Below, piece after piece: positions 9,872 to 58,015 of a stretch of DNA of 64,000 bases. Position 1 is the first letter of the stretch, and every line of letters begins with the position of its first letter. The stretch lies in NCBI GenBank assembly GCA_041287865.1, contig JBGGMV010000008.1:70297-134296 (forward strand), in the 5' to 3' direction. The DNA is from Alphaproteobacteria bacterium (GTDB lineage: Bacteria; Pseudomonadota; Alphaproteobacteria; Micavibrionales; UBA2020). Made by a program: the position numbers and the translations under genes. Below the pieces are notes generated by a model. It saw only the letters and a program-made list of their open reading frames with translations. It had not been told where the DNA came from and searched no databases.

Positions 9872-9933
9872 AGAAGGATTCGACCCTTGGGGTGTGGGCC
9901 TCTTGGGAAATAACGATAAATTCTGGGTGTGTA

Positions 9934-11838: not shown

Positions 11839-11909
11839 TATTAATTCTTTCCTAAGATCGTTAACGGCCTCTCCCGGAACGGTTTTAGTCAAAGCAGGGT
11901 GGTGTGCAT

Positions 11910-14027: not shown

Positions 14028-14047
14028 TTTAAAGGATATAACGCGAC

Positions 14048-32291: not shown

Positions 32292-32370
32292 ATTTTTGTG
32301 ATCCCCTGCATCTTTACCTCAGTTGACTTTAAATTAAGAGACACTAGTGTCAATCGCACAAGCGACCGCC

Positions 32371-32538
32371 ACGCGGGAGAGACTGGCTCATTTGCCGGCG
32401 CCGAAGGAGCAACCACCCCGGAAACTCTCAGGCAAAAGGACCGCGCGGCGACTTCGTTACTCTGGAAAGCGGCTATAGCCGCGCCAAAGGAGCAAGCGGT
32501 TGAAATGCCGCGGAATCTCTAAGGCAAAGAAGACAGAG
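32371..32538 (+). promoter_or_regulatory. tandem glycine riboswitch (two aptamers)
   Basis: Aptamer 1 (32371-32445): GGGAGAG...CGCCGAAGGAGCAAC...CTCTCAGGCAAAAGGACC. Aptamer 2 (32460-32538): CTCTGGAAAG...CGCCAAAGGAGCAAG...TCTCTAAGGCAAAGAAGACAGAG. Both match the conserved cores and lie directly upstream of gcvT. Confidence 0.85.
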
Positions 32539-32577
32539 CGGGGCAAGTTTCCGAACGACTATGAAAAGGAATTTGCC

Positions 32578-33723: not shown

Positions 33724-34098
33724 ATGACGAAAATTCTGTTCAGCGAAGACCATGAATACATCAAGATCGAAAACGGCGTCGGCACGGTCGGCATTTCCGA
33801 CTTCGCGCAAAAGGCGCTGGGCGACGTGGTTTACGTCGAATTGCCGAAGGTTGGCGCGAAGCTGACCAAGGGCGGGCAGGCCGGCGTTGTCGAAAGCGTC
33901 AAATCAGCCTCCGAACTTTATTCCCCCGTCACCGGCGAAGTGGTCGAGATCAACGGCGCGCTGACCGGCGACCCCGCGCTGGTGAACAGCGACCCGCTGG
34001 GCAAGGCCTGGTTCTTCAAGGTGAAAATTGCCAACGAAAACGAACTCACCGGCCTGAAAGACGAGAAAGCGTACAATGACTTCATTAAAGGACTTTAA
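33724..34098 (+). CDS. gcvH: glycine cleavage system H protein
   Basis: 124 aa with the lipoyl-lysine motif [18 protein letters not shown]. Confidence 0.95.
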
Positions 34099-34102
34099 GC
34101 GC

Positions 34103-38959: not shown

Positions 38960-39081
38960 CCGCGCTTAATCGCCTTTGAATTCAAGCATATAAAAATCTG
39001 CTCGTTCCCTCTGGCGGAAAACCGGGACGTATAATATGGTTATCTCCCTTACTATCGTACCGTAAGCTTGAGAGGGATTTG

Positions 39082-40164
39082 ATGTCCGCCGGACTGCTCG
39101 CCCTGCTGCAAGAAACCGCCACCGCCACGCAAGGCGCGATGGTCAAAACGACAGGGGTCGTCTGCGACGACCTCGCGGTCAGCTGCAACCAGTTCATCGG
39201 CGGCCAGCCCGACCGCAAAATCCCCATGGTGATGAAGGTCGCCAAACGCTCGCTCATTAACAAAGCCATTTTAATCCCCTCGGCCCTCGCGCTCTCGCTC
39301 ACCTTCCCCGCGGCTATTTTGCCGGCGCTGGCCGTGGGCGGCGCGCTGCTCTGCTACGACAGCATGCACAAGATCACGCACAAGGCCATCAAGCCGCCGC
39401 CCGTCGCGGTGAGCGAAGCCTATGCCAACGACCATGCCGCCTGGGAAAAGCGCCATGTGAAAAGCGCGATGCATACCGACCTTGTCCTTTCGGCCGAGGT
39501 GACGACGGTGTCGCTCTGGAGCGTGACGGGCGCGCCCGTCCTTGTCCAGCTGGGCACGCTGACCGCGACCGGCCTTGCCATGACCGCCGCGGTTTATACG
39601 GCTGTTGCGGCCATCATCAAGATGGATGATGCCGGCGTCGCGCTGGAAAAAGTGAAGGGTAACGGCCTGTTTGCGAAAACCTGCCACAAGGCGGGTAAAG
39701 CCATCGGCCATGTCGCGCCGAAACTGATTAAAACCATCGGCGTCGTCGGCATGGCCGCGATGTTCCTAGTCGGCGGCACGATGCTGGTGCATGGCATTCC
39801 GGGCGGCGAGCATCTGGTCGGTGCCGCCGTGTCGGCCCTTGGCGCGAATGCCGTGGTGCAGGCCGTGGCGGTCGTCGCGCTGCAATTCGGCGTCGGTGTT
39901 GTGGCGGGCATTGCCTCGCTCCCCGTCGCCAAGGTCGTTATCCCCGCCTACAAGAAATCCGTTGCTTGGACGCGCAAGCTGTTCGGCAAGCCCGATATCA
40001 CAAAACCGCTTGCGCAATCACCCCAAGCACCTGAACCCGCGCCGAAGCTTCTGCCGCCCAAGGGCAGCGCCAGCACGGCGCTCAATGCCGCTGTCAGGCT
40101 GGACGCGCCCGCCAACGACACGCAGGCAAAACCCGTCCTTGCCGCAAAACCGCCCAAGCCATAA
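39082..40164 (+). CDS. DUF808 (YedI-like) inner-membrane protein, divergent paralog 1
   Basis: MSAGLLALLQETATATQGAMVKTTGVVCDDLAVSCNQF...IPMVMKVAKRSLINKAILIP parallels the DUF808 N-terminus. It has a Pro/Lys-rich C-terminal extension. Confidence 0.7.
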   Translation: MSAGLLALLQETATATQGAMVKTTGVVCDDLAVSCNQFIGGQPDRKIPMVMKVAKRSLINKAILIPSALALSLTFPAAILPALAVGGALLCYDSMHKITHKAIKPPPVAVSEAYANDHAAWEKRHVKSAMHTDLVLSAEVTTVSLWSVTGAPVLVQLGTLTATGLAMTAAVYTAVAAIIKMDDAGVALEKVKGNGLFAKTCHKAGKAIGHVAPKLIKTIGVVGMAAMFLVGGTMLVHGIPGGEHLVGAAVSALGANAVVQAVAVVALQFGVGVVAGIASLPVAKVVIPAYKKSVAWTRKLFGKPDITKPLAQSPQAPEPAPKLLPPKGSASTALNAAVRLDAPANDTQAKPVLAAKPPKP

Positions 40165-41464: not shown

Positions 41465-42652
41465 TTGGCTGCTACCGGACTACTTGCGATCCTTGATGAT
41501 ATTGCAGCGATGACGAAGATTGCGGCCAAGAAGACCGCCGGCATCGCAGGCGACGATCTGGCGGTGAACGCGCATGCGGTGGCGAACGGCAAGGGCGGGA
41601 TCGACCCCAAGCGCGAGCTGCCCATCGTCTGGGAAATTGCCAAGGGTTCCTTCAAGAACAAGTTCCTCTACCTGATCCCGGGCGCGATGCTGCTGACGGC
41701 CGTTGCCCCCTGGGCGATCCCCCCGCTGATGATGGCGGGCGGCGCCTTCCTCTGCTACGAGGGCATCGAGAAAGTCATCCACAAGAAAGGCAAGGACTCG
41801 GACGAGGAAAAACGCCTGCTTGCCGAAATGGATTCAAAAGAGCTTGAAAAGAAAAAGATCGCCGGCGCGATCAAGACCGACGTGATCCTTTCCGCCGAAA
41901 TCGTCGTTGTGACGCTGGGCGCGATCGCAGGTTCTACGTTATTGGTGCAGGCGGCCACGCTGGCCGCCGTCGGCGTCATCATGACGGTCGGCATTTACGG
42001 CCTTGTCGGCGGCCTAGTGAAGCTCGACGATATCGGCCTGCACCTGCAGAAGAAAGAAGGCGACGGTTTCGGTGCGAAATGCCAGCGCACGCTCGGCAAA
42101 TGCCTTGTGAAAGGCGTACCGCCCTTTATGAAATGCCTTTCGGTCGTCGGCACCGCCGCCATGTTCGCGGTGGGCGGCGGTATTATATTGCACGGCATCC
42201 CGATGCTGGGCCATGCGGTCGCGGGCCTTGCCCATGCCGCAACCTCGATCCCCGTTGTCGCGGGCCTGATTGAATCGGGCATTGCGATTGCGGCCGGCGT
42301 TGCAACCGGCTTTGCCGCTATCCCTGCCGTCAAGGCGATCTCGAAGCCGCTCGGCAAGGTGATGGAAGTCTGCAAGAACGCCGTCGACATCGTGAAAGAC
42401 GCCATGACGCGCATCCCCCTGCTCAACAAGCTGGTGAAAAAACCCGTAGCCGCGAACGAGAACAAACCGCTCTCCGCGCCGAAGAAGCCCGAGGCAGCAC
42501 CCGCCCTTGCCAATGCGCCCGACCTGACCGCCAAACATGCCAAGGCCGCCAAGCCCGCGCCCAAAGTGGTGCCGGAGCCGCCCCCGCCCGCGCATTACCC
42601 GCCGCCCGGCGAGTTCCAGAAAGAACTGAAACAGAACCGCTATAACGGCTAG
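41465..42652 (+). CDS. DUF808 (YedI-like) inner-membrane protein, paralog 2
   Basis: TTG start with GAGGAGG 7 nt upstream. AATGLLAILDDIAAMTKIAAKKTAGIAGDDLAVNAHAV...ELPIVWEIAKGSFKNKFLYL is the canonical DUF808 N-terminus. It carries an about 90-aa Pro/Lys-rich extension. Confidence 0.8.
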   Translation: MAATGLLAILDDIAAMTKIAAKKTAGIAGDDLAVNAHAVANGKGGIDPKRELPIVWEIAKGSFKNKFLYLIPGAMLLTAVAPWAIPPLMMAGGAFLCYEGIEKVIHKKGKDSDEEKRLLAEMDSKELEKKKIAGAIKTDVILSAEIVVVTLGAIAGSTLLVQAATLAAVGVIMTVGIYGLVGGLVKLDDIGLHLQKKEGDGFGAKCQRTLGKCLVKGVPPFMKCLSVVGTAAMFAVGGGIILHGIPMLGHAVAGLAHAATSIPVVAGLIESGIAIAAGVATGFAAIPAVKAISKPLGKVMEVCKNAVDIVKDAMTRIPLLNKLVKKPVAANENKPLSAPKKPEAAPALANAPDLTAKHAKAAKPAPKVVPEPPPPAHYPPPGEFQKELKQNRYNG

Positions 42653-42706: not shown

Positions 42707-43633
42707 ATGGCCGGCGGCGGCTTGCTTGCATTACTGGACGATATCACCGTGCTGCTCGACGACATCGCCGCGATGTCGAAGGTGGCGGCGGTAAAGACCT
42801 CCGGCATCGTCGGCGACGACCTTGCCGTGAACGCGCAGGCGCTTGTAGGCCTCGATCCGAAACGGGAATTACCCATCGTCTGGCGCGTGGCCAAGGGCTC
42901 GCTGAAAAATAAATTCATCCTCGTCCCGACCGCCCTGCTCCTGTCCGCCTTTGCCGAATGGGCGATCACGCCGCTGCTGATGATCGGCGGCGCGTTCCTC
43001 TGCTACGAGGGCGCCGAAAAGATCATGCACGCGATCAAGCCCGACGCCGCCGACAAGCGGCACGAAAAGGAACTGATCGAAGCCGGTCACCTGAGCGCGA
43101 AATCGGTCATGGAGGTCGAGAAGGAAAAAATCGGCGAGGCCGTGAACACCGACTTCATCCTTTCCGCCGAAATCATCGCCGTCGCGCTGGGCTCGGTCAA
43201 GGAAATGAGCTTTGCCGTGCAAACGGGCGTCCTGGCGGGCATCGGCATCGGGATGACTGTCTTTGTGTACGGCCTAGTCGGCTGCATCATCAAGCTTGAC
43301 GATCTCGGCATGTGGCTCGCCAAGAAGAAAAGCCGCGCGGCGCAGAAACTGGGCCTCTGGATACTGAAGGCCATGCCCTATTTCATGAAGACGCTGACCG
43401 TCGTCGGCACCATCGCCATGTTCGCGGTGGGCGGCGGCATCATCCTGCACGGCATCCCTGCTGTTAAAGACGCGATGCACCACTGGAGCAGCTGGATCTC
43501 CGTCCCCTCCACCATTGTCGCAGGCCTGATCATCGGCTTCCTCTGCATCCCCGTCGCCCATGTGCTGGCCAAGCCCTTTGGCAAGATCATGAAGGCCGTC
43601 AAAAAGGCGATGCCGAAATTCAAGAAAGCCTAG
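42707..43633 (+). CDS. DUF808 (YedI-like) inner-membrane protein, paralog 3
   Basis: 308 aa, the canonical family length, starting MAGGGLLALLDDITVLLDDIAAMSKVAAVKTSGIVGDDLAVNAQAL. Confidence 0.85.
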   Translation: MAGGGLLALLDDITVLLDDIAAMSKVAAVKTSGIVGDDLAVNAQALVGLDPKRELPIVWRVAKGSLKNKFILVPTALLLSAFAEWAITPLLMIGGAFLCYEGAEKIMHAIKPDAADKRHEKELIEAGHLSAKSVMEVEKEKIGEAVNTDFILSAEIIAVALGSVKEMSFAVQTGVLAGIGIGMTVFVYGLVGCIIKLDDLGMWLAKKKSRAAQKLGLWILKAMPYFMKTLTVVGTIAMFAVGGGIILHGIPAVKDAMHHWSSWISVPSTIVAGLIIGFLCIPVAHVLAKPFGKIMKAVKKAMPKFKKA

Positions 43634-45671: not shown

Positions 45672-47687
45672 ATGTCGTCCGCCCAGCCCCTGAAATCTTC
45701 CACTCCCACCACCGCCAGCCACAAGGACATGAGCAACGCGCTCCGCGCGCTCTCGATGGATGCGGTGCAGAAAGCGAATTCCGGCCACCCCGGAATGCCG
45801 ATGGGCATGGCCGATGTGGCAACGGTGCTCTTCACCAAGTTCCTGAAATTCGACGCCTCCAACCCCCTCTGGCCCGACCGCGACCGTTTCATCCTCTCCG
45901 CCGGCCACGGCTCGATGCTGCAATACTCGCTGCTCTATCTCACGGGCTACGAGAAAATGACGCTCGACCAGATCAAGAATTTCCGCCAGCTGCACAGCCT
46001 GACCCCCGGCCACCCCGAAGTCATGCCCGAGGTCGGCATCGAAACCACCACCGGCCCGCTGGGCCAGGGTATTTCCAACGGCGTCGGCTTTGCCCTTGCC
46101 GAGCGTATGTTCAACGCGCGCTTCGGCAATGACCTTGTGAACCATTTCACCTACGTCATCGCCTCCGACGGCGATTTGATGGAAGGCATCAGCCACGAAG
46201 CCTGCTCGCTCGCCGGTCACCTCGGCCTTGGCAAGCTGATCGTGCTCTACGATGACAACGAAATCTCCATCGACGGCCCGACCTCGCTGTCGTTTACCGA
46301 CAATACGGCGCAGCGTTTCGAAGCCTACGGCTGGGAAACCTTCACCGTCGACGGCCACAACCCCGAACAGATCGCCAAGGCCATTGCCGCCGCGCAGATC
46401 AACGTGGGCAAGCCTTCGCTGATTTGCTGCAAAACCAAAATCGGCTATGGCGCGCCGACGAAACAGGGCTCGGCCTCATCCCACGGCTCGCCGCTGGGTG
46501 ACGAAGAAATCGCGGGCGCGCGCAAGAACCTCGGCTGGGCGCATATCCCCTTCGACGTTCCTGCCGATGTGTTTGACGCATGGCGCGCCGCAGGCGCCGC
46601 AGGCCAGATCGACCGCAAGAACTGGCAGGCCCGCCACGACGCGCTCGAAGGCGAAAAACGCCAGCTGTTCGACCGCATGCTGAAGGGCGATGTGACCTCG
46701 ATCGTCACCCCCATTATCAACGACTTCAAAAAGAAAATGACCGCCGAAGCGCCGAAAATCGCCACCCGCGCGGCCTCCGGCAAAGTGCTGGAAGCGCTGA
46801 TCCCCGCGCTGCCCGAAATGGTGGGCGGCTCGGCCGACCTTACCGGCTCCGTCCTTACGCTCGTGAAAGACATGGGCAAGGTGACGAAATCGGATTATTC
46901 CGGCCGTTACATCTACTGGGGCGTGCGCGAACACGGCATGGCCGCGGCCATGAACGGCATGGCGCTGCACAGGGGTTTCATCCCCTACGGCGGCACATTC
47001 CTGAGCTTCACCGACTATTGCCGCCCCTCTATTCGTTTATCCGCGCTGATGAAGCAGCGTGTCATTTACGTGATGACGCACGATTCCATCGGTCTCGGCG
47101 AAGACGGCCCGACGCACCAGCCTGTGGAACATGTGGCCGCGATGCGCTGCATCCCCAACGTGCTGGTCTTCCGCCCCGCCGACGTGATTGAAACCGCAGA
47201 GGCCTGGCAGATCGCTCTTGAACACACCACCGGCCCCAGCATCCTTGTGCTGACGCGCCAGAACCTGCCGCTGGTCCGCAAGGGCGGCGAGACGGAGAAC
47301 ATCACCAAGCGCGGCGCCTACATTCTGGCCGAAGCTTCGCAGCAACCGGTCTGCACCATCTGGGCGACGGGTTCGGAAATCGAAATCGCGATGAAGGCCC
47401 GCGACCAGCTGGAAGCCGCCAAGATCCCGACCCGCGTCGTTTCCGCACCGTGTCTGGAGCTGTTCTGGAAGCAGGACGAAAAATACCGCGCCTCGCTCCT
47501 GAACCAGTCGAAAGTCACCGTGGCCGTTGAAGCCGCCGTGCGCCAGGGCTGGGACGCCATCATCGGTTCGGACGGTATCTTCGTCGGCATGAAGTCCTTC
47601 GGCGAAAGCGCGCCTTATCAAAAACTCTACGAACACTTCGGCATCACGGCCGAAGCGGTCGTCGAACAAGTCAAAAAGAAAATTTAA
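45672..47687 (+). CDS. tkt: transketolase
   Basis: 671 aa with RALSMDAVQKANSGHPGMPMGMADV, GHGSMLQYSLLYLTGY and the ThDP motifs. AAGGAG lies upstream. Confidence 0.95.
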   Translation: MSSAQPLKSSTPTTASHKDMSNALRALSMDAVQKANSGHPGMPMGMADVATVLFTKFLKFDASNPLWPDRDRFILSAGHGSMLQYSLLYLTGYEKMTLDQIKNFRQLHSLTPGHPEVMPEVGIETTTGPLGQGISNGVGFALAERMFNARFGNDLVNHFTYVIASDGDLMEGISHEACSLAGHLGLGKLIVLYDDNEISIDGPTSLSFTDNTAQRFEAYGWETFTVDGHNPEQIAKAIAAAQINVGKPSLICCKTKIGYGAPTKQGSASSHGSPLGDEEIAGARKNLGWAHIPFDVPADVFDAWRAAGAAGQIDRKNWQARHDALEGEKRQLFDRMLKGDVTSIVTPIINDFKKKMTAEAPKIATRAASGKVLEALIPALPEMVGGSADLTGSVLTLVKDMGKVTKSDYSGRYIYWGVREHGMAAAMNGMALHRGFIPYGGTFLSFTDYCRPSIRLSALMKQRVIYVMTHDSIGLGEDGPTHQPVEHVAAMRCIPNVLVFRPADVIETAEAWQIALEHTTGPSILVLTRQNLPLVRKGGETENITKRGAYILAEASQQPVCTIWATGSEIEIAMKARDQLEAAKIPTRVVSAPCLELFWKQDEKYRASLLNQSKVTVAVEAAVRQGWDAIIGSDGIFVGMKSFGESAPYQKLYEHFGITAEAVVEQVKKKI

Positions 47688-47712: not shown

Positions 47713-48723
47713 ATGACAGTAAAAGTCGCCATCAACGGGTTTGGCCGCATCGGCCGCCTTGTCCTGCGTTCCATCATGGAAAGCGGCCGCAATGACGTGA
47801 CCGTCGTCGGCATCAACGACCTCGCGACTGCAGAGGCCAACGCGCACCTGCTGAAATACGACAGCGTGCACGGAAAGTTCAAAGGCGAAGTGAAGGTCAA
47901 CGGCACGAAACTGGTCGTCAACGGCCATGAAATCACCATGACGCAGGTGAAAGACCCCACCACCCTGCCGTGGAAAGATCTCGGCGTCGATATCACCATG
48001 GAATGCACCGGCATCTTCACCAAGAAAGAAGATGCGCTGAAGCACATTCAGGCCGGCGCAAAAAAGGTTCTGATCTCCGCCCCCGCGACGGATGAAGACC
48101 TCACCGTCGTTTACGGCGTGAACCATGACAAGCTGGCGGCGAACCATGTGGTCGTCTCCAACGCGTCCTGCACCACCAACTGTCTTGCGCCTGTGGCTTA
48201 CGTGCTCGATAAAGCCGTCGGCATCAAGCACGGTTTCATGACCACCATCCACAGCTATACCGGCGACCAGAACACGGTCGATACGATGCACAAGGATTTG
48301 CACCGCGCGCGCGCGGCGGCCCTCAACATCATCCCGACCTCGACGGGCGCCGCCAAGGCCGTGGGCCTTGTGCTGCCGCACCTGAAGGGCAAGCTGGACG
48401 GCACCTCGCTCCGCGTGCCGACGCCGAACGTCTCGGTCGTGGATTTCAAGTTCACCGCCAACAAGGCAACCACGGTGGAAGAAGTGAACAAGGCGATCAC
48501 CGATGCGGCGTCGAACGGCCCGCTGAAGGGCATCCTCGGCACCTATACGGAGCCGCTGGTGTCGACCGACTTCAACCACGATCCTCATTCCTCCATCTTC
48601 GCGCTGAAGGAAACCAAGGTTATCGAGGGCACTTTCGTGCGCGTGATGATGTGGTACGACAACGAATGGGGTTTCTCCAACCGCATGTCGGACACGGCTG
48701 TCGCAATGGCGAAGCTGAAATAA
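47713..48723 (+). CDS. gap: type I glyceraldehyde-3-phosphate dehydrogenase
   Basis: VKVAINGFGRIGRLVLR at the N-terminus and the active site SNASCTTNCLAP. Confidence 0.95.
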   Translation: MTVKVAINGFGRIGRLVLRSIMESGRNDVTVVGINDLATAEANAHLLKYDSVHGKFKGEVKVNGTKLVVNGHEITMTQVKDPTTLPWKDLGVDITMECTGIFTKKEDALKHIQAGAKKVLISAPATDEDLTVVYGVNHDKLAANHVVVSNASCTTNCLAPVAYVLDKAVGIKHGFMTTIHSYTGDQNTVDTMHKDLHRARAAALNIIPTSTGAAKAVGLVLPHLKGKLDGTSLRVPTPNVSVVDFKFTANKATTVEEVNKAITDAASNGPLKGILGTYTEPLVSTDFNHDPHSSIFALKETKVIEGTFVRVMMWYDNEWGFSNRMSDTAVAMAKLK

Positions 48724-48746: not shown

Positions 48747-48774
48747 GGGGCGGCGAAAGCCGCCCCTTTCTTTT
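48747..48774 (+). terminator. rho-independent terminator after gap
   Basis: GGGGCGGC-GAAA-GCCGCCCC followed by TTTCTTTT. Confidence 0.8.
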
Positions 48775-48835
48775 GCGCAAAAGCCTGATTTTAAAGGCTG
48801 AAATCCACCCGTCCAAGAATTTGGTAATGTTTTTT

Positions 48836-48844
48836 TGCTATAAT
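48836..48844 (+). promoter_or_regulatory. extended -10 promoter TGcTATAAT
   Basis: An exact TGnTATAAT match in an AT-rich patch about 125 nt upstream of ATG 48971. Confidence 0.5.
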
Positions 48845-48970
48845 AAAAGAACCTTGGGAGAGGTAGAGTAGTACGAGGATTTGCGGGGCGGCTTCGCGTG
48901 ATGGCGAGCCCGCCCTGCATTCCCGCACATCCCAACCAACCCCACAGGCAGAAAAAACTATGGAGCCAGA

Positions 48971-51900
48971 ATGGCTGACGCCATCACTTCGTTTTTCCTG
49001 CTGCAGGCGAACCGTAGCGGTTCCGCCAGTGCCCAGATCGCGCCTTCCGCGCTCGAGCTGGGCTCCGACACGCTGACCCGCAATCCGCGTCTTGAGACGC
49101 TGGGCAAGCTTTTCGCCCCGCCCTCGGGCGCCAGCAATATTGCGGGGCTCGACAGTTTCCTCGCCGTCGCCACCGCTGCGAAAACAGCCGCCGGTGCCCC
49201 CGCCAGAAATTCCAAAGATGCGCTGAAACAGGCACCGGAACTGAGGAAGAACGACAGCGCAGCGCTCGACGTCTTCATCAAGCGCGAAACGGCGGCTGAA
49301 TCCCGCCTGAAGCAGCTGTTGCAGGCGTCGACCGCAGCCGCCGCAACCTCTACTACCAGCAAACCTGCCGAAACCGAGGCGGCAACAGCGGCAGCTTCCA
49401 TCACCCGCAACAGCGGGCTGCGCATCACGGAAGGCGGCGACGGCATTATCAACAGCCGGCGCCTGAACACCAATATTCCGGGCGCACGACCGCAGGATAT
49501 TATCTATACCGTCAACGAAAGCCCGCGTAACGGCAGGCTGGAACTGACAGCAAAGCCCGGCGAAGCGGTAACGACCTTCACCCAGCAGGACCTCAACCTC
49601 GGCCGCCTGCGCTACGTCAGCAACGGGTCGGAGGCACGCGGCGACAGTTTCGATTTCACGGTCAGGGGCGGCGAACAGGAACTGTCAGGCAGCTTTGGCA
49701 TCAGCGTAGCGCCGGTCAACGATGCGCCGGCGGTTTCCGTGAACACAGGTTTGACAGTCGCGGAAGGCGACACGGCGACGCTGACGACGGCGCAGCTCTC
49801 GGTCAGCGACCCTGACAGCCGCGCCGAGGATACCGTCTTCACGGTTACCGGCGGCCCGCAGCACGGACGGCTGGAATACGCCGCCAGCCCGGGCCTCGCC
49901 ATCACCAGCTTTACCCAGGGCGACATCGCCGCAGGGCGCGTGCGCTACGTGAGCGACGGATCGGAAGTCACCTCCGACAGCTTCACCTTCACCGCCAGCG
50001 ACGGCATCAGCGCGACGGCGGCCGAGACCTTCAACATCAATGTCACCCCCGTTGACGACAGCGCGACGATTGTCAACAACACCGGCGCGACGGTGACCGA
50101 AGGCGGCTCCGCGGTGCTTAGCGAAACGCAGCTGTCATCAACCGACGTCGACACGGCGGTCGAGGATATTATCTACAATGTGACCTCGGGCCCCTCCGGC
50201 GGCTATCTCGAATTCACCGATAACGCCGGCACGGCGATCACGTCCTTCACGCAGGCCGACGTCAATTCGGGACGCGTCCGTTATGTGCATGGCGGCGGCG
50301 AAGCGCCCGCCGACAGCTTCAACTTTACCGTGACCGGCAGCACCGCCACCACGGCCTCCGCAAGCTTTGCCTTCACCGTCACCCCTGTCGATGACGCCCC
50401 GCAGCTGCAGGCCAACACTGGTGCGACATTGAACGAAGGCGGCACGACCGCGATAACGGCGGCGCAACTGTCCGTCTCCGATGTCGACACCGCCGCCAGC
50501 GGCATCGTCTACAATATCACCGCAGGCCCTCAGCACGGTCGGCTGGAATATGCCTCCAGCCCCGGCACCGCCGTCACCAGCTTTACGCAGGCCGATATCG
50601 ATTCCGGCAGAATCGTTTACATCCATGACGGATCGGAAACCACGTCGGACAGCTTTACCTTTACCGCCGCCGACGCGACCACGACGCTGGGCGCTTCGTC
50701 CTTCGCGCTGAACGTTACGCCGGTCGACGATGCGCCGGTGATTACAAACACCGACGGCACGGTGGTGGAGGGCGGAACCAGCACCATCACATCTTCACAA
50801 CTGGGCGCGTCAGACCCCGATACGGCAGCCGCGAATATCACCTACACAGTCACCGCCGCGCCGACAACCGGACGGCTTGAAAACGCGACGAACCCGGGCG
50901 TGTCGATCACCAGCTTCACGCAGGCCGATATCGACGCGGGCAATATCCGCTTCGTCCACGACGGCGGCGAGGCCCCGACGTCAAGCTTCGGCTTCTCGGT
51001 TTCCGACGGCACGACGACGCAGGCCGGCAATACCTTCACCTTCGGCGTCATCCCGGTCGACGACGCGCCGGTGCTGGCGGCGAATACCGGCGGCACGCTG
51101 GCAGAGGGCGGATCGAGCATCATCACATCTGCCCAACTGCGCACGACAGACGTCGATACGGCGGCTGCGAATATCACCTATACAGTTACATCGGGCCCGA
51201 CAAACGGCCAGCTGGAAAGAACGACCAACCCGGGTGTCGGCATCACCAGCTTCTCGCAGGCCGATATCGACGCGGGCCGCATCCGCTTCGTCCACAACGG
51301 CAGCGAAACGACGACGGCCAGCTTCGGCTTCTCCGTTTCCGACGGCACGACCACGCAGGCCGGCAATACCTTTGGTTTCAGCGTTACGCCGGTCGATGAT
51401 GCGCCGGTGCTCACGAATACCGGCGGCACGATTGCGGAGGGCGGATCAAGTATCATCTCGTCGTCGCAGCTGCGCGCAACCGACCCCGATACGGCAGCCG
51501 CCAATATCACCTATACCGTCACCGCCGCCCCCACCACCGGACGGCTTGAAAGCGCGACGAACCCGGGCGTGTCGATCACCAGCTTCACGCAGGCCGACAT
51601 CGACGCAGGCCTCATTCGCTTCGTCCACAACGGCGGCGAGGCGCCGACGGCCAGCTTCGGCTTCTCCGTTTCCGACGGCACGACGACGCAAGCGGGCAAT
51701 ACCTTCACCTTCGGCGTCACGCCCGTCAACGACGCACCGGTGCTGGCGACGAATACGGGCACAAGCGTCGCAAGGCGCGATACCACGACCATTACATCGG
51801 CGCAGCTGCAAACGACGGATGTCGATAATACCCCGTCAAGCCTTACCTATACCGTCACCGCCAGCCCGACGCGCGGCAGGCTGGAACTCTCCACCAACCC

Positions 51901-52060
51901 CGGCGTTAGCATCACTTCATTCACCCAGGCCGACATCGACGCCGGCCGCCTGCGCTATGTGCATACAGCAAATGGCGCCGCGAACGATTCCTTCACCTTC
52001 ACCGTCTCGGACGGCGCGGCATCGATCGCCGCCTCCAGCTTCGCCATCGATGTGACGTAA
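48971..52060 (+). CDS. large cadherin-like (CSPG-type) repeat protein
   Basis: 1029 aa. An about 147-aa Ala/Ser/Thr-rich N-terminal region is followed by eight about 111-aa repeats (NTGxTVxEGG..ITxxQL...DxDT....I.YTVT..P..GRLE....PG..ITSFTQADIDAGRIRFVH.G.E....SF.F.VSDG......F.F.VTPVDDAP). No signal peptide and no RTX or other C-terminal domain. GGAG lies 5 nt upstream of the ATG. Confidence 0.85.
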   Translation: MADAITSFFLLQANRSGSASAQIAPSALELGSDTLTRNPRLETLGKLFAPPSGASNIAGLDSFLAVATAAKTAAGAPARNSKDALKQAPELRKNDSAALDVFIKRETAAESRLKQLLQASTAAAATSTTSKPAETEAATAAASITRNSGLRITEGGDGIINSRRLNTNIPGARPQDIIYTVNESPRNGRLELTAKPGEAVTTFTQQDLNLGRLRYVSNGSEARGDSFDFTVRGGEQELSGSFGISVAPVNDAPAVSVNTGLTVAEGDTATLTTAQLSVSDPDSRAEDTVFTVTGGPQHGRLEYAASPGLAITSFTQGDIAAGRVRYVSDGSEVTSDSFTFTASDGISATAAETFNINVTPVDDSATIVNNTGATVTEGGSAVLSETQLSSTDVDTAVEDIIYNVTSGPSGGYLEFTDNAGTAITSFTQADVNSGRVRYVHGGGEAPADSFNFTVTGSTATTASASFAFTVTPVDDAPQLQANTGATLNEGGTTAITAAQLSVSDVDTAASGIVYNITAGPQHGRLEYASSPGTAVTSFTQADIDSGRIVYIHDGSETTSDSFTFTAADATTTLGASSFALNVTPVDDAPVITNTDGTVVEGGTSTITSSQLGASDPDTAAANITYTVTAAPTTGRLENATNPGVSITSFTQADIDAGNIRFVHDGGEAPTSSFGFSVSDGTTTQAGNTFTFGVIPVDDAPVLAANTGGTLAEGGSSIITSAQLRTTDVDTAAANITYTVTSGPTNGQLERTTNPGVGITSFSQADIDAGRIRFVHNGSETTTASFGFSVSDGTTTQAGNTFGFSVTPVDDAPVLTNTGGTIAEGGSSIISSSQLRATDPDTAAANITYTVTAAPTTGRLESATNPGVSITSFTQADIDAGLIRFVHNGGEAPTASFGFSVSDGTTTQAGNTFTFGVTPVNDAPVLATNTGTSVARRDTTTITSAQLQTTDVDNTPSSLTYTVTASPTRGRLELSTNPGVSITSFTQADIDAGRLRYVHTANGAANDSFTFTVSDGAASIAASSFAIDVT
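49412..52057 (+). repeat. eight tandem about 333-336-nt coding repeats
   Basis: Repeat boundaries are marked by V[DN]D[AS][AP] at aa 249, 360, 473, 585, 696, 808 and 919. Units 5-7 (about 50738-51736) are near-identical at protein level. Confidence 0.85.
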
Positions 52061-52144
52061 ATAGCGGTAAATAAGGGGCTTTTGCCGCTTGATTTGGCGG
52101 CCCCGCCCGCATAATATACCCTCAAAACCGCCAAGGAGGGTCAC

Positions 52145-53116
52145 ATGAGCGCAACGCAGAAAGTCACCAAAATGCCCGCGAAACACGCGAATGTCGGCGT
52201 CACCGACACCGTCAAAAAAATTCTCGCTAACTATGAAAGCGACAACCCGGGTACGAAGGCAAACATCTGCCGCCTGCTGATGACCGGCAAGCTGGCCGGC
52301 ACGGGCAAGATGGTCATCCTGCCCGTCGACCAGGGTTTCGAGCACGGCCCCGGCCGCAGCTTCGCCATCAACCCCGAAGCTTACGATCCGCATTACCATT
52401 ACCAGCTGGCAATTGATTCAGGCTGCAACGCCTACGCGGCGCCGCTCGGCGCGCTCGAGGCCGGCGCTGATACTTTCGCAGGCGCCATTCCGCTGATCCT
52501 GAAAATCAATTCGTCCAACAGCCTCATTCAAGCCAAGGACCAGTCGGTCAACGGTTCGGTCGCAGACGCGCTCCGCCTCGGCTGCTCGGCCATCGGCTTC
52601 ACCATCTACCCCGGCTCCGAGCACATGCTGGAGCTGCAGGAAGAAATCGTGCAGCTGTCCGAAGAAGCGAAATCGGTCGGCATCGCCACGGTCATCTGGT
52701 CTTACATCCGCGGACCGAAAGTGTCGAAAGAAGGCGAACTGGCCATCGACAACATCGCTTACGGCGCGCATATGGCGGCGCAGCTTGGCGCGCATATCAT
52801 CAAGGTGAAACTGCCCTCCGATCACCTCGACCTGCCCGAAGCGAAAAAAGTCTACGAAGAGCGCAAGATTCCGATCAAGACGCAGGCCGAGCGCGTGAAG
52901 CACGTGATGCAATCGAGCTTCGCGGGCCGCAGGCTCGTCGTCTTCTCGGGCGGCGCGACCAAGGACGAGGACAGCGTGTACGAAGACGCCCGCGCGATTT
53001 ACGAGGGCGGCGGCAACGGTTCCATCATCGGCCGCAACTGCTTCCAGCGCCCGCGCGAGGAAGCGCTTTCCATGCTCGACAAGATCATGGACATCTACCT
53101 CGGCAAAGACGCTTAA
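52145..53116 (+). CDS. fbaB: class I fructose-bisphosphate aldolase (DeoC/FbaB family)
   Basis: 323 aa with KMVILPVDQGFEHGP, LILKINSSNSL and the Schiff-base lysine context AHIIKVKLP. The end is GGGNGSIIGRNCFQR. Confidence 0.8.
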   Translation: MSATQKVTKMPAKHANVGVTDTVKKILANYESDNPGTKANICRLLMTGKLAGTGKMVILPVDQGFEHGPGRSFAINPEAYDPHYHYQLAIDSGCNAYAAPLGALEAGADTFAGAIPLILKINSSNSLIQAKDQSVNGSVADALRLGCSAIGFTIYPGSEHMLELQEEIVQLSEEAKSVGIATVIWSYIRGPKVSKEGELAIDNIAYGAHMAAQLGAHIIKVKLPSDHLDLPEAKKVYEERKIPIKTQAERVKHVMQSSFAGRRLVVFSGGATKDEDSVYEDARAIYEGGGNGSIIGRNCFQRPREEALSMLDKIMDIYLGKDA

Positions 53117-53180: not shown

Positions 53181-53861
53181 ATGACCTCCGATACCCCTCC
53201 CCCCCGCTGCCAGCTTTACATCATCACCCCGCCCAGACTGCCGCCCGATTTCGCGGAGCAGATGGCGCGCGCGCTGGATGCGGGCGAAGTCGCCTCATTT
53301 CAATTGCGCCTTGAAACCACGGACGAAAGCGAATGGAAACGCGCGGCGGAAAAGCTGCTGCCGGTGGCGCAGGAGCGCAATGCCGCCTTTATCATCAACA
53401 ACCACGTGCTGCTGGCGAAAGAAGTCGGCGCAGACGGCGTTCATATCGGCGTGCACGACATGCGCGTGAAAGAAGCGCGCGCGATACTGGGGCCGGATAA
53501 AATCATCGGTTCCACCTGCATGGACAGCAAGCACCTTGCCATGACGGCGGCCGAGGCCGGAGCGGATTACGTCAGCTTCGGGCCCTTCTTCACCACACGC
53601 TCGCCCTTCTACCCCAAGGAAAACTACGCACCCAAATACATGGTGTCGCCGAATATTTTGACATGGTGGAGCCAGGTGATGGAAATTCCCTGCGTCGCCG
53701 CGGGCGGCATCACGCCGCAGAACTGCCGCGATATCATCAAGGCCGGCGCGGATTTCATCTGCGCCAGCACCTCCATCTGGGACGCGCCCGGCGGCGCTGC
53801 CGCCGCCATCAAGAGCTTCCACATCCAGCTGGCCGAAGCGGATAAAAAAGCCGCGGGTTAA
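53181..53861 (+). CDS. thiE: thiamine-phosphate synthase
   Basis: LYIITPP, FQLRLE, AFIINNHVLLAKEVGADGVHIG, IIGSTC and GADYVSFGPFFTT are the ThiE motifs. Confidence 0.85.
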   Translation: MTSDTPPPRCQLYIITPPRLPPDFAEQMARALDAGEVASFQLRLETTDESEWKRAAEKLLPVAQERNAAFIINNHVLLAKEVGADGVHIGVHDMRVKEARAILGPDKIIGSTCMDSKHLAMTAAEAGADYVSFGPFFTTRSPFYPKENYAPKYMVSPNILTWWSQVMEIPCVAAGGITPQNCRDIIKAGADFICASTSIWDAPGGAAAAIKSFHIQLAEADKKAAG

Positions 53862-53879: not shown

Positions 53880-54725
53880 ATGCAGCGTCTTTTTACCCTC
53901 GCCCTTCTCCTTTTCCTTCTTGTTCTCCCCGTCTACGTACAAGCAGGATGGCCTGATGCATCTGTAGATGACCCCGACCCTGAAAAATGGCTTGAATTAC
54001 GTCTAAAAGAAGCTGAGCAAGGCTTTCCACGCTCCCAATATGAAGCTGCGCACGTTCTTCACGCTTACGGCAAGAAAGACGCCGCCAAACTTGCGGAGGC
54101 TGTCGCATGGTATAGAAAGGGAGCCGAAAATGGTGAACCCCTCTCGCAACTTGCCCTTGGAGGAATGTATCTAAACGGCGAAGGAATGTCCCCCGATTAT
54201 CAGGAGGGATTGTTTTGGATCACTCTGGCCCACAAAACAAGTCTCGAAACGCTCGTCCAGAAGGAATTGGCAGTAGCAGAACGCCACCTTTCTGCAGCAG
54301 AAATCGCGGCGACCAAAAAGCGCGCCGATGAGTGGCGCATTTCGCCTGACAACTTGAAAAAATTACTGGCGCTTGCGGATTTGGGCACCACTGTGCAATG
54401 CCATCTGGGCGATCTTTACCGCTATGGCAACGGCGTGTCGCTGGATTACGCCGAAGCGTTGAAGTGGTACAATATCGCCGCTGTCCGCGATAACGGGATG
54501 GCGCAATACCAGCTCTACGAAATGTATTTCAACGGTACAGGCGTAACGCAGAATTTCGAGGAGGCGTATTTCTGGCTCCGGATTTCGCAGCGTAACAATA
54601 CACACAACAAGGATCCTATTTTGAGCGCCCATCCTATCGCAAAGATGCTGACTTTCGGGCAGGTAGGCAGGGTGAATGCGCGCGTAGAGACGTGGAAACC
54701 GCTACCGCCTTCTTCCAAGCCATAA
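53880..54725 (+). CDS. Sel1-repeat (SLR/TPR-like) exported protein
   Basis: Signal peptide MQRLFTLALLLFLLVLPVYVQA. Sel1 repeats include AVAWYRKGAENGEPLSQLALGGMYLNGEGMSPDYQEGLFW and ALKWYNIAAVRDNGMAQYQLYEMYFNGTGVTQNFEEAYFW. GC is about 50% on two hand-counted 60-nt lines. Confidence 0.8.
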   Translation: MQRLFTLALLLFLLVLPVYVQAGWPDASVDDPDPEKWLELRLKEAEQGFPRSQYEAAHVLHAYGKKDAAKLAEAVAWYRKGAENGEPLSQLALGGMYLNGEGMSPDYQEGLFWITLAHKTSLETLVQKELAVAERHLSAAEIAATKKRADEWRISPDNLKKLLALADLGTTVQCHLGDLYRYGNGVSLDYAEALKWYNIAAVRDNGMAQYQLYEMYFNGTGVTQNFEEAYFWLRISQRNNTHNKDPILSAHPIAKMLTFGQVGRVNARVETWKPLPPSSKP

Positions 54726-54728
54726 CGG

Positions 54729-55304
54729 TTAAACCGGCTTTTTTACTTTCAGCGTTTTCATGAGTTTGGGATTGCCGACCGGCGCCACCGCCTGCGCGAC
54801 TGCGTTGTCGATGCTTGCGGCGTTCAGGGCCCGGGTTTCGGCGGTGTCGCAAATCTTGAGAATGGCTTGCAGGTTTTTAGCCGATATATCGACATTCTGC
54901 AGACGCCAGACATCACCCGGGCGAATCTTGCTGTCATCAGAGGTTTTCCAGTTCATTTTAGGGGTGGGCCCGACCCAGAGCTCCGCGCAGATATCGGTTG
55001 TATAGGCAAAGCCCTTCAGGCGCTCGGTTTTGTCGGCGTAGTCTTCAAGATGCTTTTTCTGCTTTTCGCGCAGCGCGTCGACTTTTTCCAATACCGCCTG
55101 AATGCCGGAGTGGTCTAAAACGCCCCTCTCCTCCGTCGCTATCCCGTACCTGCCGCCCGTCATCGCGCCGCTGGCCACATTCGTATTGAAAAGCCACGAA
55201 AAGAAATCCCGCTTGTGCCGCGGCTCCTTCTTCAAATGATATTCCTCGGTGCCGGTGACGCGGAGGATAAAGGTTACTTCCTGCGGCGGTTTTTGCTCCA
55301 TCAT
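54729..55304 (-). CDS. hypothetical protein with C-terminal tail motif (paralog A)
   Basis: 191 aa with no signal peptide. It is paralogous to the upstream gene (VLDHSGIQAVLEKV vs PLDHSTIGKVFETV; ISAKNLQAILKICDT vs ITAENLAAFIALFDT). It ends ...KLMKTLKVKKPV. Confidence 0.65.
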   Translation of the reverse strand: MMEQKPPQEVTFILRVTGTEEYHLKKEPRHKRDFFSWLFNTNVASGAMTGGRYGIATEERGVLDHSGIQAVLEKVDALREKQKKHLEDYADKTERLKGFAYTTDICAELWVGPTPKMNWKTSDDSKIRPGDVWRLQNVDISAKNLQAILKICDTAETRALNAASIDNAVAQAVAPVGNPKLMKTLKVKKPV

Positions 55305-55305
55305 C

Positions 55306-55902
55306 TCAGGGGCTCTTCCTGATCTGCAGCGCCTTCATCGGCTTCACGTCGCGCACGGGTTCGACCGCGCTGCTGATGGCGGCCTTGACCGCAAGTGCCT
55401 GCGCGGCCTGATCGGCAAGGCGCTTGTCCCGCGTGTCGAACAGCGCGATAAAGGCGGCGAGATTTTCGGCGGTGATCTGTTCTTCCTGGAACAACCTGGC
55501 GCCGGTCGCGCCGCCCTTGGTCCAGAGCTCCTGCGGGTTGAAATGGCGGGGGACGAACTGGTCTTTCCTGCCGGCCCAGACCTGCGTTATCGTCTCGCTC
55601 CAGTAATCGAAGTCGTCGCGCGACGGGGTTTGCGCTTTGTCGATGCGCGTTTTCATGGCGGCGGTTTTTGCGGCGACGGTTTCAAAAACCTTGCCGATCG
55701 TGGAATGATCGAGCGGGCCCTGCCCCGATTCCATCGAGCTGCCCTCGATCGCATGCCAGCCCTTTGGCGCGCGGCGGCCGAAAATTTTCGCGAGGCCTTT
55801 GCGCTCCGGGATCTTCATTGCATTGCGGTAACGGCCCAGCACTTCGACAACGAAGACCAGTTCATCGGCAGGTTTTTCGGCGCTGGGCGCATCGGCAGCC
55901 AT
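55306..55902 (-). CDS. hypothetical protein with C-terminal tail motif (paralog B)
   Basis: 198 aa with AAGGAG at 55918-55913. It ends ...VKPMKALQIRKSP. Its stop lies 1 nt before paralog A's start. Confidence 0.65.
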   Translation of the reverse strand: MAADAPSAEKPADELVFVVEVLGRYRNAMKIPERKGLAKIFGRRAPKGWHAIEGSSMESGQGPLDHSTIGKVFETVAAKTAAMKTRIDKAQTPSRDDFDYWSETITQVWAGRKDQFVPRHFNPQELWTKGGATGARLFQEEQITAENLAAFIALFDTRDKRLADQAAQALAVKAAISSAVEPVRDVKPMKALQIRKSP

Positions 55903-57373: not shown

Positions 57374-58015
57374 TTACTGGTCGAACTGTTTGAGGCGGAT
57401 TGTTTTGACAGGGACAGGCGCGCCCGCGCCGCCATAGACGGCGGACGAAATTTCCGCCTGCAATGCGGCTTCCTTTTCTTCCTTCGCAATACGCGCGACT
57501 TCGGAGAAGTGGAAGGCGATGCTGTCGGCGACTTTCTTGCCGGCGGGCCAGCGCGTATCTTCTTCGCCGCGCTGATAGATATTCCGGTGCTGCGCATCCT
57601 CCACCATCGGGTCGGCGCCGTGCCTGACCAGCCAGAGCGCGCGGTCGGTCGTATTGTCACGCAGGTCCATGTTGTAGGCCCAGTGCAGCGGGGTCATGCC
57701 CTTCTCGCCCGCCTTCAGGTTCACGTCGGCCCTGGCATCTTTCACCAGCCATTCGGCGACGTCATAGCGGCGTTCCATCAACGCGCGCACCAGCGGGCCT
57801 TCGCCGTCGTCATCGACGACATTGGCTTCGGCCCCGTAATTGAACAGCAGCTTCGCCATGTCGAGATCGCCGCGCCATGCCGCGTGGAACAAGGCCGTGC
57901 GGCCGTTCACATCCGTCGCGCCCGCATCGGCCTTTTCGGCCAGAAGTTCTTCGGCGCGGCCGGTATTGCCGTCCTTCACCGCCTTCATCAGCATTTCGTC
58001 GAATTTGCGCGCCAT
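57374..58015 (-). CDS. ankyrin-repeat protein
   Basis: GRTALFHAAWRGDLDMAKLLFNYGAEANVVDDDGEGPLVRAL and GMTPLHWAYN are ankyrin repeats. It ends ...VPVKTIRLKQFDQ. Its stop lies 1 nt before the epmA start. Confidence 0.85.
   Translation of the reverse strand: MARKFDEMLMKAVKDGNTGRAEELLAEKADAGATDVNGRTALFHAAWRGDLDMAKLLFNYGAEANVVDDDGEGPLVRALMERRYDVAEWLVKDARADVNLKAGEKGMTPLHWAYNMDLRDNTTDRALWLVRHGADPMVEDAQHRNIYQRGEEDTRWPAGKKVADSIAFHFSEVARIAKEEKEAALQAEISSAVYGGAGAPVPVKTIRLKQFDQ

Follow-up and report, generated by a model that had tools for sequence, protein, structure and literature searches.

A gene lying between gap and the aldolase gene fba encodes, judging from its sequence and structural models, a lineage-specific, probably extracellular, rod-forming protein of Micavibrio-like alphaproteobacteria, which on balance we take to be a fast-evolving adhesin or spacer. 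The protein consists of an N-terminal module of ~136 aa that is conserved and predicted to be largely disordered, a variable chain of Cadherin_3 beta-sandwich repeats and a terminal 'cap' repeat, and its repeat number differs between species through internal repeat duplication or deletion. The rod may act at the cell surface as an adhesin or spacer, probably toward prey or host surfaces, with a reach set by the repeat number; at ~4.5 nm per domain, 4-11 repeats would span about 20-50 nm. Because the N-terminal module is the sole non-repeat part and is also fused to unrelated tails, it may serve as an export or anchoring handle, and the rod protein would need a Sec-independent export pathway. 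Micavibrio and other epibiotic predators have to attach to prey surfaces, and hardly anything is known of the adhesins they use; the repeat family is one candidate, being positionally conserved, fast-evolving and length-variable, with a modular handle, extender and cap. A predatory lifestyle of the source organism itself is suggested only by the names of its relatives.

An independent transcription unit between gap and fba

The window, i.e. the whole stretch of 64,000 nucleotides that was analysed, contains the following features at this locus (tkt, gap and thiE were assigned with Pfam/NCBIfam).

45672-47687, tkt, flank of the repeat gene
47713-48723, gap, flank of the repeat gene
48747..48776, + strand, intrinsic gap terminator, GGGGCGGC-GAAA-GCCGCCCC then TTTCTTTTG; its hairpin, 48747-48766, has 8 G-C pairs and is followed by a T-run
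48836..48844, + strand, candidate extended -10 element TGCTATAAT of the repeat gene; L001 and L015 have the same letters here and in the ACCTTGGGAGAGGTAG that follows
48851..48948, + strand, structured 5' leader, closed by CCUUGGG/CCC.AGG into a long hairpin whose GC-rich core spans 48883-48918
48962..48965, + strand, Shine-Dalgarno sequence GGAG, separated from the downstream ATG by 5 nt; L001 and L015 both retain GGAGCC
48971..52060, + strand, CDS of the cadherin-like/CSPG-repeat protein, 1029 aa, pI 4.27, 0 Cys, 0 Trp, 1 Met
52089..52117, + strand, putative promoter-like element of fba's own, TTGATT-17-TAATAT, conserved in 6/6 compared loci
52145-53116, class I FBA gene (NF006704, 513 bits, DeoC/LacD-type)
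53181-53861, thiE, downstream flank

The repeat gene forms an independent transcription unit between gap and fba, and its ORF opens at the first possible start codon. Relatives also have a GC hairpin with a T-run in the same position after gap. The TGCTATAAT site escaped a generic sigma-70 scan, as it has no -35 match; it is called as the probable promoter on the strength of the extended -10 and the conservation of that element. The leader folds with an MFE of -50.8 kcal/mol (z=-3.3), and its closing helix is kept in three sequences with one compensatory pair, too few for covariation. A role of the leader hairpin as a terminator was ruled out since no T-run follows it. Rfam, run over the whole window, assigned nothing in the leader, its sole match being a glycine riboswitch. 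An earlier reading of this DNA, made from the sequence only, had described a strong gap terminator, an extended -10 at 48836, a GC-rich leader hairpin and a good RBS. Each of these elements was recovered here, the -10 being conserved in two close relatives, and the gene's own promoter-like element, leader and RBS support the self-contained unit which that reading had proposed.

Eight CSPG-type repeats with an extracellular fold

The protein contains eight repeat units of 111-112 aa (TRF period 333 nt), within the ~100-115 aa that CSPG tandem units measure, preceded by the N-terminal module.

48971..49378, + strand, N-terminal module, aa 1-136, conserved, pI 9.15, predicted to be mostly disordered with short helices
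49379-49711, 49712-50047, 50048-50383 and 50384-50719, + strand, repeats 1-4, each collinear with its counterpart in the closest orthologues
50720-51052, 51053-51388 and 51389-51721 (span 50720..51721), + strand, repeats 5-7, a lineage-specific triplication, all mapping to repeat 7 of orthologue P0004
51722..52057, + strand, terminal 'cap' repeat 8, conserved across the family, with RYVHT in place of VH(D/N)GSE

Pfam Cadherin_3 (PF16184) matched eight stretches of the protein (E=8.4e-225, 730.3 bits), the criterion being an HMM match above the gathering threshold of 25.5 bits. Cadherin_4 and Big_9 matched as well, and the tandem-95 repeat model NF012211 of NCBIfam scored 117.9 bits against a curated cut-off of 90. 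The HMM searches proposed with the sequence-only reading thus agree with its description of eight ~111-aa CSPG/cadherin-like repeats. Among PDB sequences, the repeat protein matched only CSPG4 (7ml7_B, E=1.4e-22). Repeat 1 was modelled by AF2 with pLDDT >90 and matched CSPG4 in Foldseek (7n8x_B, E=8.1e-7, TMt 0.62). The Foldseek matches of the AF2 models comprised CSPG4, E-cadherin, protocadherins and the staphylococcal adhesin SraP, the top structural matches being cell-surface or extracellular adhesion proteins.

The internal repeats have PV(D/N)DAP linkers, conserved Glu residues and motifs of the form (S/T)D(V/P)D(T/S); linker, DxD and Glu are candidate Ca2+-coordination motifs, and binding is putative. 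The terminal repeat, which is unusually conserved across the gap-X-fba repeat-protein family, lacks the two Glu residues found without exception in the penultimate repeat. In the AF2 model of repeats 7-8 (pLDDT 96.3), the chain is folded up to the final residue and the last strand of repeat 8 is the end of the protein, as had been read from the sequence.

Repeat number changes between relatives

Repeat number changes between relatives via internal repeat gain or loss. Orthologues were found with 2, 4, 5, 6, 7, 8, 9, 10 or 11 repeats, which agrees with the length variability noted earlier, and the count varies even where FBA is 98% identical between genomes. The ends of the orthologues are collinear and the length differences reside in the internal repeats. 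Repeats 5-7, previously described as almost identical, share only 80-87% identity at the DNA level and 73-87% at the protein level. The earlier inference of their recent expansion was too strong, as their divergence from each other (pairwise dS 0.41-0.62) is on a par with the dS of this genome against its relatives.

The N-terminal module

The N-terminal module is conserved, portable and rare. It had been taken as a 147-aa Ala/Ser/Thr-rich N-terminus; it is indeed the sole non-repeat part, but it measures about 136 aa and is a conserved module rather than mere filler, with the motifs MADxITxFF, APSxLELGsD.LTRNP, LDSFLAVA and KRETsAE.RLKELL. Its AF2 pLDDT is 36-55. Each locus has one copy, and 16 representatives were found among 1.84 billion proteins. 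In P0243, P0244, P0247 and P0250 the module is joined to unrelated low-complexity tails. The short paralogues carrying the module lie on contigs of 1.0 and 2.3 kb, the surroundings of which are uninformative. Searching 17 members against Pfam at E<=10 gave no consistent match, and the profile of the module against PDB sequences gave only noise (E ~0.4). A metagenome scan with the N-terminal alignment yielded 248 pattern matches (A1) and no confirmed relatives.

A double-glycine (C39 peptidase) leader was considered for the invariant LG(S/A) at residues 30-32 and was rejected as unsupported, since its hydrophobic/Glu register, compared by eye, does not fit the GG-leader consensus. A LapA-type retention module, a FliK-like ruler and a flagellin-like N-terminus, which were also considered, found no sequence or structural support.

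Export and anchoring

It was confirmed that the protein carries no recognizable Sec signal, RTX or type I C-terminal domain, or anchor motif of the kinds searched for. PF00353 (RTX) did not match at E<=0.01, nor did the T9SS C-terminal domain (PF18962), and no TM-like segment was found, the maximum Kyte-Doolittle value over 19 residues being 1.16. By residues and Kyte-Doolittle, the N-terminus MADAITSFFLLQANR shows no Sec/Tat-like signal, as it has no basic n-region and a hydrophobic run of only 7 residues. In the AF2 model, pLDDT is 96 to the end and no free C-terminal tail suited to a classical T1SS signal is seen; an uncleaved secretion signal, if present, may be embedded in the last repeat itself. 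No ABC/MFP/OMP genes were found among the ~45 window ORFs scanned against Pfam, and no secretion-system genes were seen within the 64-kb window. The protein is thus a small puzzle, an obviously extracellular fold without a known export tag. Cys is absent in 21 of the 21 family members checked, and in homologues outside the family the same repeats occur together with tail domains of the RTX (T1SS) or T9SS kind. The pI of 4.27, the Cys-free family and these tailed homologues were counted toward the extracellular character of the rod.

As to the route of export, we hold it possible, though on present evidence rather unlikely, that the protein is a type I secretion substrate, a relative of the RTX adhesins stripped of its RTX part and exported C-terminus first via ABC/MFP/TolC encoded elsewhere, with the cap repeat as the signal and the N-terminal module for retention on the cell side. 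The acidic, Cys-free composition without a Sec signal and the unusual conservation of the terminal repeat would suit such a substrate, as would P0011, the nearest non-family homologue, in which a VHT-type last repeat is followed by GGxGxD repeats and a T1SS-like C-terminus. M. aeruginosavorus, an epibiotic predator, has a complete T1SS, as well as T2SS, and lacks T3SS and T4SS (PMC3189940), which is also consistent with type I export. However, RTX repeats are absent, the C-terminus is modelled as a fully folded beta-sandwich without a tail, and the window has no T1SS genes. Moreover, the C-termini of the short N-terminal-module proteins are quite different (PPGQSKK), which suggests that the functional element they have in common is the N-terminus rather than the C-terminus. 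If the protein were an ordinary T1SS adhesin, the finding would be routine.

Somewhat less probable is that the N-terminal module is a new Sec-independent export signal or chaperone-binding region, serving the flagellar export apparatus or another system, with cadherin-like rods or Gly/Pro-rich tails as passengers. The module is disordered yet conserved and has short helices, like secretion or chaperone-binding N-termini; its fusion to the unrelated tails of the four proteins named above and the lack of any other candidate signal in the protein argue in the same direction. On the other hand, it resembles no known signal or domain, the contexts of the short paralogues do not inform on the question, the gene has no secretion or flagellar genes next to it, and a disordered region that is conserved might just as well be an anchor or interaction region. 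It seems improbable to us that the 136-aa module is an undescribed, lineage-restricted Sec-independent export/anchoring signal of Micavibrio-like bacteria with varied passengers and the rod a prey-contact 'ruler', its repeat number tuning predator-prey spacing and changing rapidly in an arms race.

An intact gene under purifying selection

The repeat gene is under purifying selection (dN/dS 0.20-0.35), and its protein evolves about ten times faster than its neighbours, the dN being ~10x that of gap and fba. The exact sequence of the 1029-aa protein is not on record, and the literature on Micavibrio and cadherin, bacterial CSPG repeats and Micavibrionales gave no description of the family. The lack of a recognizable export signal and the repetitive make-up of the gene, of a kind that can be mis-assembled, would fit if the protein were an intracellular scaffold that is not exported, or the ORF an assembly artefact or decaying gene. 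We regard this as very unlikely. The ORF is intact, its start and stop positions agree with 28 homologues from independent assemblies, and the dN/dS argues against decay or artefact. The repeats of the gene are mutually only 35-87% identical and hence easy to assemble. The best structural matches, all to adhesion proteins of the cell surface or outside the cell, and the absence of Cys from all members likewise favour the extracellular rod over a scaffold.

A stable position unrelated to pgk

The sequence-only reading had held that the gene sits where pgk is expected. It was right that the window has no pgk: none was found there or in the related loci L001-L015, the best tblastn match having E=0.2 with an approximate E. 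coli Pgk query. An orthologue of the repeat gene occupies the gap-X-fba slot in the window and in at least ten other related assemblies, across which FBA identity is 80-96%; these relatives, too, have no pgk there. This is the outcome that the sequence-only reading had itself named as refuting its view. In a sister clade, gap and fba are separated by 24-27 bp in which no gene is called, again without pgk. In a gap+fba+tkt tree, the loci carrying the repeat gene form a monophyletic group; the tree has no outgroup, so that a gain of the gene by this clade is indistinguishable from its loss by the sister clade. The GC3 of the repeat gene (0.78) is the same as that of its neighbours and its codon usage is native; no mobile-element genes flank it. 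Since no related locus has pgk at the gap-fba site, pgk was never 'expected' in this Micavibrio-like lineage, and the tkt-gap-pgk-fba expectation does not apply to it. The position of the repeat gene is stable throughout one clade and is unrelated to pgk. That a recently inserted, self-contained adhesin cassette took the place of pgk in an ancestral tkt-gap-pgk-fba operon is scarcely credible: the gene's own promoter-like element, leader and RBS, the strong gap terminator and the absence of pgk from the window would fit, but the occupied slot in related assemblies of such FBA divergence, the closely spaced gap and fba of the sister clade, the GC3 and the lack of flanking mobile-element genes all speak against it. 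The missing-pgk angle, i.e. the metabolic-operon view of the locus, is therefore not meaningful.

Comparison with known systems

The tkt-gap-pgk-fba order is the Rhizobiales arrangement. The present locus resembles it in that tkt, gap and the aldolase gene are clustered and co-oriented, and differs in that pgk is missing from every related locus examined, even those without the repeat gene, and in that the aldolase is of class I.

With the RTX/T1SS giant adhesins of the LapA, MpIBP and SiiE type, the window protein shares the acidic, Cys-free composition without a Sec signal, Ig-like extender repeats strung into a long chain, and a non-repeat N-terminal region with a possible role in retention; the VHT-type last repeat is common to it and P0011, the nearest RTX/T1SS example. 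In contrast to these adhesins, it has no RTX nonapeptides, C-terminal signal tail or adjacent T1SS genes, its N-terminus is predicted to be disordered with no folded plug, and its family is much smaller (0.6-1.4 kaa).

Cadherin and protocadherin EC domains (7stz_C, 3q2v_A, 6vfp_A) and SraP (4m00_A) superpose on the two-repeat AF2 model with E ~1e-6 and are likewise rod-like tandems. However, sequence identity to classical cadherins and SraP is only 15-19%, and the repeats fit the Cadherin_3/CSPG model far better than the classical cadherin models. The closest likeness in domain type is to the Cadherin_3/CSPG proteins (CSPG4/NG2, FRAS1/FREM; bacterial NF012211), with which the window protein shares ~111-aa tandem units with strong HMM matches, the beta-sandwich fold of CSPG4 repeat 1 (7n8x_B, 7ml7_B), and the cadherin-like PV(D/N)DAP linker and DxD motifs. 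Unlike other Cadherin_3/CSPG matches, it has no signal peptide, TM, LamG, Calx-beta, FG-GAP/VCBS, RTX or T9SS tail; its only extra part is the novel N-terminal module.

Identity of the repeat protein and its control elements

The gene order in the window is tkt, gap, repeat gene, class I fructose-bisphosphate aldolase (fba; NCBIfam NF006704, 513 bits), thiE and a Sel1-repeat gene, which confirms the neighbours named in the sequence-only reading. The repeat gene and its control elements are located as follows.

Features of the repeat gene and its flanks
48747-48766: gap terminator, 8 G-C pairs and a T-run
48836-48844: putative extended -10 of the repeat gene, TGCTATAAT
5 nt upstream of the repeat-gene ATG: Shine-Dalgarno GGAG
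48971-52060 (+): repeat-gene coding sequence, 1029 aa, from the first start codon past an in-frame stop
52089-52117: promoter-like element of fba, CTTGATTTG-N-CATAATATACCC = TTGATT-17-TAATAT, common to 6 of the 6 loci compared

Pfam searches assigned eight stretches of the protein to Cadherin_3 (PF16184; 730 bits, E=8.4e-225), overlapped by Cadherin_4 and Big_9 matches, and NCBIfam classed it as a tandem-95 repeat protein (117.9 bits, cut-off 90). The sole match among PDB sequences was human CSPG4 (7ml7_B, E=1.4e-22). The repeat unit is 111-112 aa, with PV(D/N)DAP linkers marking the boundaries. AF2 predicted confident beta-sandwiches for repeat 1 (pLDDT >90) and for repeats 7-8 (pLDDT 96.3, pTM 0.76), and Foldseek matched the repeat models to CSPG4, E-cadherin, protocadherins and the cadherin-like modules of the staphylococcal adhesin SraP. 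Its place in the Cadherin_3/CSPG (tandem-95) repeat family is secure, and the initial description of eight cadherin-like repeats was largely correct. Pfam and sequence properties revealed no Sec-like N-terminus, RTX or TM segment, in agreement with the earlier claim for Sec and RTX. Overall, the protein is acidic (pI 4.27), and Cys is absent from 21 of the 21 family members checked.

The regulatory features listed from the sequence (gap terminator, TGCTATAAT, leader hairpin and GGAG) were all found. At -50.8 kcal/mol (z=-3.3), the predicted fold of the leader is a long hairpin; three sequences preserve its closing helix, a number too small for a covariation test. The two closest relatives retain the extended -10, followed by ACCTTGGGAGAGGTAG, a GC-rich leader hairpin and a AAGGCAGAAAAAA...GGAGCC region; in more distant relatives the leader is shorter, and another -10-like element stands in front of it. 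Since the repeat gene and fba each carry a promoter-like element, assigned from consensus and conservation, the two genes appear to be transcribed separately.

The site between gap and fba in relatives

A search of 5.8 billion proteins returned 292 homologues, at least 28 of which share the N-terminal region plus repeats (28 among the 120 matches listed). The orthologue was immediately upstream of a class I aldolase in every case examined, and gap, where visible, was directly upstream or one gene away.

Orthologues (P) and fetched loci of relatives (L)
P0004 (L001/L002), P0001 (L003/L004), P0009 (L005): upstream of class I aldolase
P0038 (L011/L012), P0037 (L013/L014): upstream of class I aldolase
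P0018 (L015): contig starts a little 5' of the gene and does not show gap
L020: 803-aa family member
L007, L010: gap C-terminus visible upstream

A sister clade, reached via the aldolases P0197 and P0218 (L016-L019), has the same backbone, gcvP-lpxR-tkt-gap-fba-(tRNA-synt_2)-ank-ffh-rpsP-rimM. The repeat gene, thiE and pgk are all absent from its tkt-gap-fba region, where gap and fba are spaced by 24-27 bp and look co-transcribed. By tblastn with an approximate E. coli Pgk query, neither the window nor the loci retrieved to that point showed a PGK-like sequence. These comparisons refute the proposal that the repeat gene sits where pgk is expected: relatives conserve the gene in the same slot and have no pgk there, and in the sister clade gap adjoins fba with no pgk between them.

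In a neighbour-joining tree of concatenated Gap+Fba+Tkt, midpoint-rooted with no outgroup, gene-bearing loci separated from gene-less loci, which fits either a gain of the repeat gene in its clade or a loss in the sister clade. The GC3 of the repeat gene is 0.78 and that of its neighbours 0.78-0.81. These results indicate that the lineage never had pgk here, and that the repeat gene is a stable feature of one clade, inherited vertically.

The aldolase ORF of the repeat-gene clade is ~17 aa longer at its N-terminus (323-325 aa; 52145-53116 in the window), and some copies are annotated from a later start (315-316 aa). The sister-clade aldolase has 305-307 aa and starts 24-27 bp past gap (L016 8001-8921; L018 8001-8918).

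Repeat number, cap and selection

Repeats 5-7 share 73-87% protein and 80-87% DNA identity and are clearly nearer each other than to the remaining repeats, all other pairs giving 35-60% and 58-67%, respectively; TRF reported 3.1 copies with 80% matches. They are not the almost identical units originally described. Their dS (0.41-0.62) matches that of gap and fba between the window genome and its nearest relatives (0.38-0.50), so that the triplication is not recent on that scale, contrary to the suggested recent expansion.

The proposed length variability was borne out. Family protein lengths are quantised in steps of one repeat: 377 aa (2 repeats), 580 (4), 690 (5), 805 (6), 903-918 (7), 1029-1033 (8), 1130 (9), 1241 (10) and 1352 aa (11). 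Both ends are collinear, because window repeats 1-4 and the last repeat best match the same-numbered repeats of P0004 and P0018, and window repeats 5, 6 and 7 all map to P0004 repeat 7. Closely related genomes carry different numbers of repeats: 8 versus 5 (FBA 98% identical), 4 versus 6 (concatenated housekeeping proteins 94-95% identical) and 9 versus 11 (Gap 97% identical). Between species, then, the protein does vary in length as internal repeats are gained and lost.

The last repeat stands apart as a conserved cap: there, RYVHT replaces VH(D/N)GSE, and the two Glu (in 'EGG' and 'GSE') invariant in the penultimate repeat are missing. The C-terminus lies 0-2 residues beyond the last strand in every family member.

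When the window gene was compared with its two closest orthologues by the Nei-Gojobori method, dN was 0.18-0.41 and dN/dS 0.20-0.35 for the N-terminus, repeats 1-4 and last repeat, against 0.015-0.03 and 0.04-0.07 for gap and fba. The repeat protein is kept by selection, yet evolves ~10 times faster than its neighbours, a pattern that would be typical of surface-exposed proteins.

The N-terminal module

Residues 1-136 form a basic module (pI 9.15) conserved family-wide (MADxITxFF, APSxLELG(S/A)D.LTRNP, LDSFLAVA, KRETsAE.RLKELL), one copy per locus. Its AF2 model is of low confidence (pLDDT 36-55) and contains some short helices. No match was found in Pfam or in PDB sequences, and profile searching recovered only 16 hits among 1.84 billion representative proteins. 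These included repeat proteins and the short proteins P0243, P0244, P0247 and P0250 (204-226 aa), in which the module precedes a Gly/Pro/Asp-rich low-complexity tail ending in PPGQSKK, GLEKKK or similar. The short proteins occur in other, unrelated contexts (L021 258-923; L022 937-1617), on contigs whose shortness makes the surroundings uninformative. The presence of the module on both repeat rods and low-complexity tails suggests that it behaves as a portable unit.

Other features of the window

A glycine riboswitch (RF00504, 71.6 bits) is in the textbook arrangement directly 5' of gcvT. The Sel1-repeat gene has a signal-peptide-like N-terminus and may be a recent acquisition, because its GC3 (0.55) falls below that of every neighbour (0.78-0.81) and the related loci examined lack it here. 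The multi-copy DUF808 (PF05661) block before tkt recurs in the repeat-gene relatives L001, L011 and L013 and is missing in L016 and L018. The three large ORFs (540-836 aa) have no Pfam match at E<=1e-5 and may encode lineage-specific proteins. The ankyrin gene adjoining the class II tRNA-synthetase-like gene is kept in all related loci, sister clade included; relatives differ in how many and which small genes lie between thiE and the synthetase-like gene.

Further features of the window
544-1377, 9054-9791 (+); 57374-58015 (-): ankyrin-repeat proteins, three in 64 kb
9892-11673, 11904-14027, 14048-15670: large ORFs; the middle one of ambiguous coding strand, 11904-14027 or 11889-14399 (-)
32364-32453 (+): glycine riboswitch
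32500-33708: gcvT
34076-36988: gcvP
39079-40164, 41465-42652, 42707-43633 (+): DUF808 paralogues
53880-54725 (+): Sel1-repeat gene
54729-55304, 55306-55902 (-): adjacent paralogue-like ORFs, 191 and 198 aa, no Pfam match

Proposed function and comparison with known systems

We propose that the repeat protein leaves the cell independently of Sec and serves as an adhesin or spacer on the cell surface. Cadherin-type domains measure ~4.5 nm each in cadherin ectodomains, and the reach of the rod would be set by repeat number. The cap would be the likely distal interaction end, and the N-terminal module may serve as an export or anchoring handle. The relatives place the window in a Micavibrio-like alphaproteobacterium. 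Prey contact would be the most plausible target, since the obligate epibiotic predator Micavibrio aeruginosavorus attaches to its prey (PMC3189940). That species has type I and type II secretion and lacks type III and IV systems (PMC3189940); no secretion genes were seen within the 64-kb window. The protein may be a type I secretion (T1SS) substrate, as the nearest non-family homologue, P0011 (1416 aa), carries RTX repeats and a T1SS-like C-terminus after a last CSPG repeat of the same VHT type. However, the family has neither RTX nor any C-terminal tail, and the element common to module-bearing proteins is the N-terminus. Another tail, ..AAKYYQGKHTKL.., ends both P0036 and P0042, of which P0042 is named as a protein of an Alphaproteobacteria MAG.

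The literature searched contained no description of this architecture, which is a small lineage-restricted variant combining a novel N-terminal module, repeats, a cap and no known export tag. The protein is not a demonstrable RTX adhesin, because the defining RTX block is absent; it would work like bacterial Ig-like repeat adhesins. As a repeat adhesin it would be of an ordinary type, and its modest interest rests on its N-terminal module and export route.
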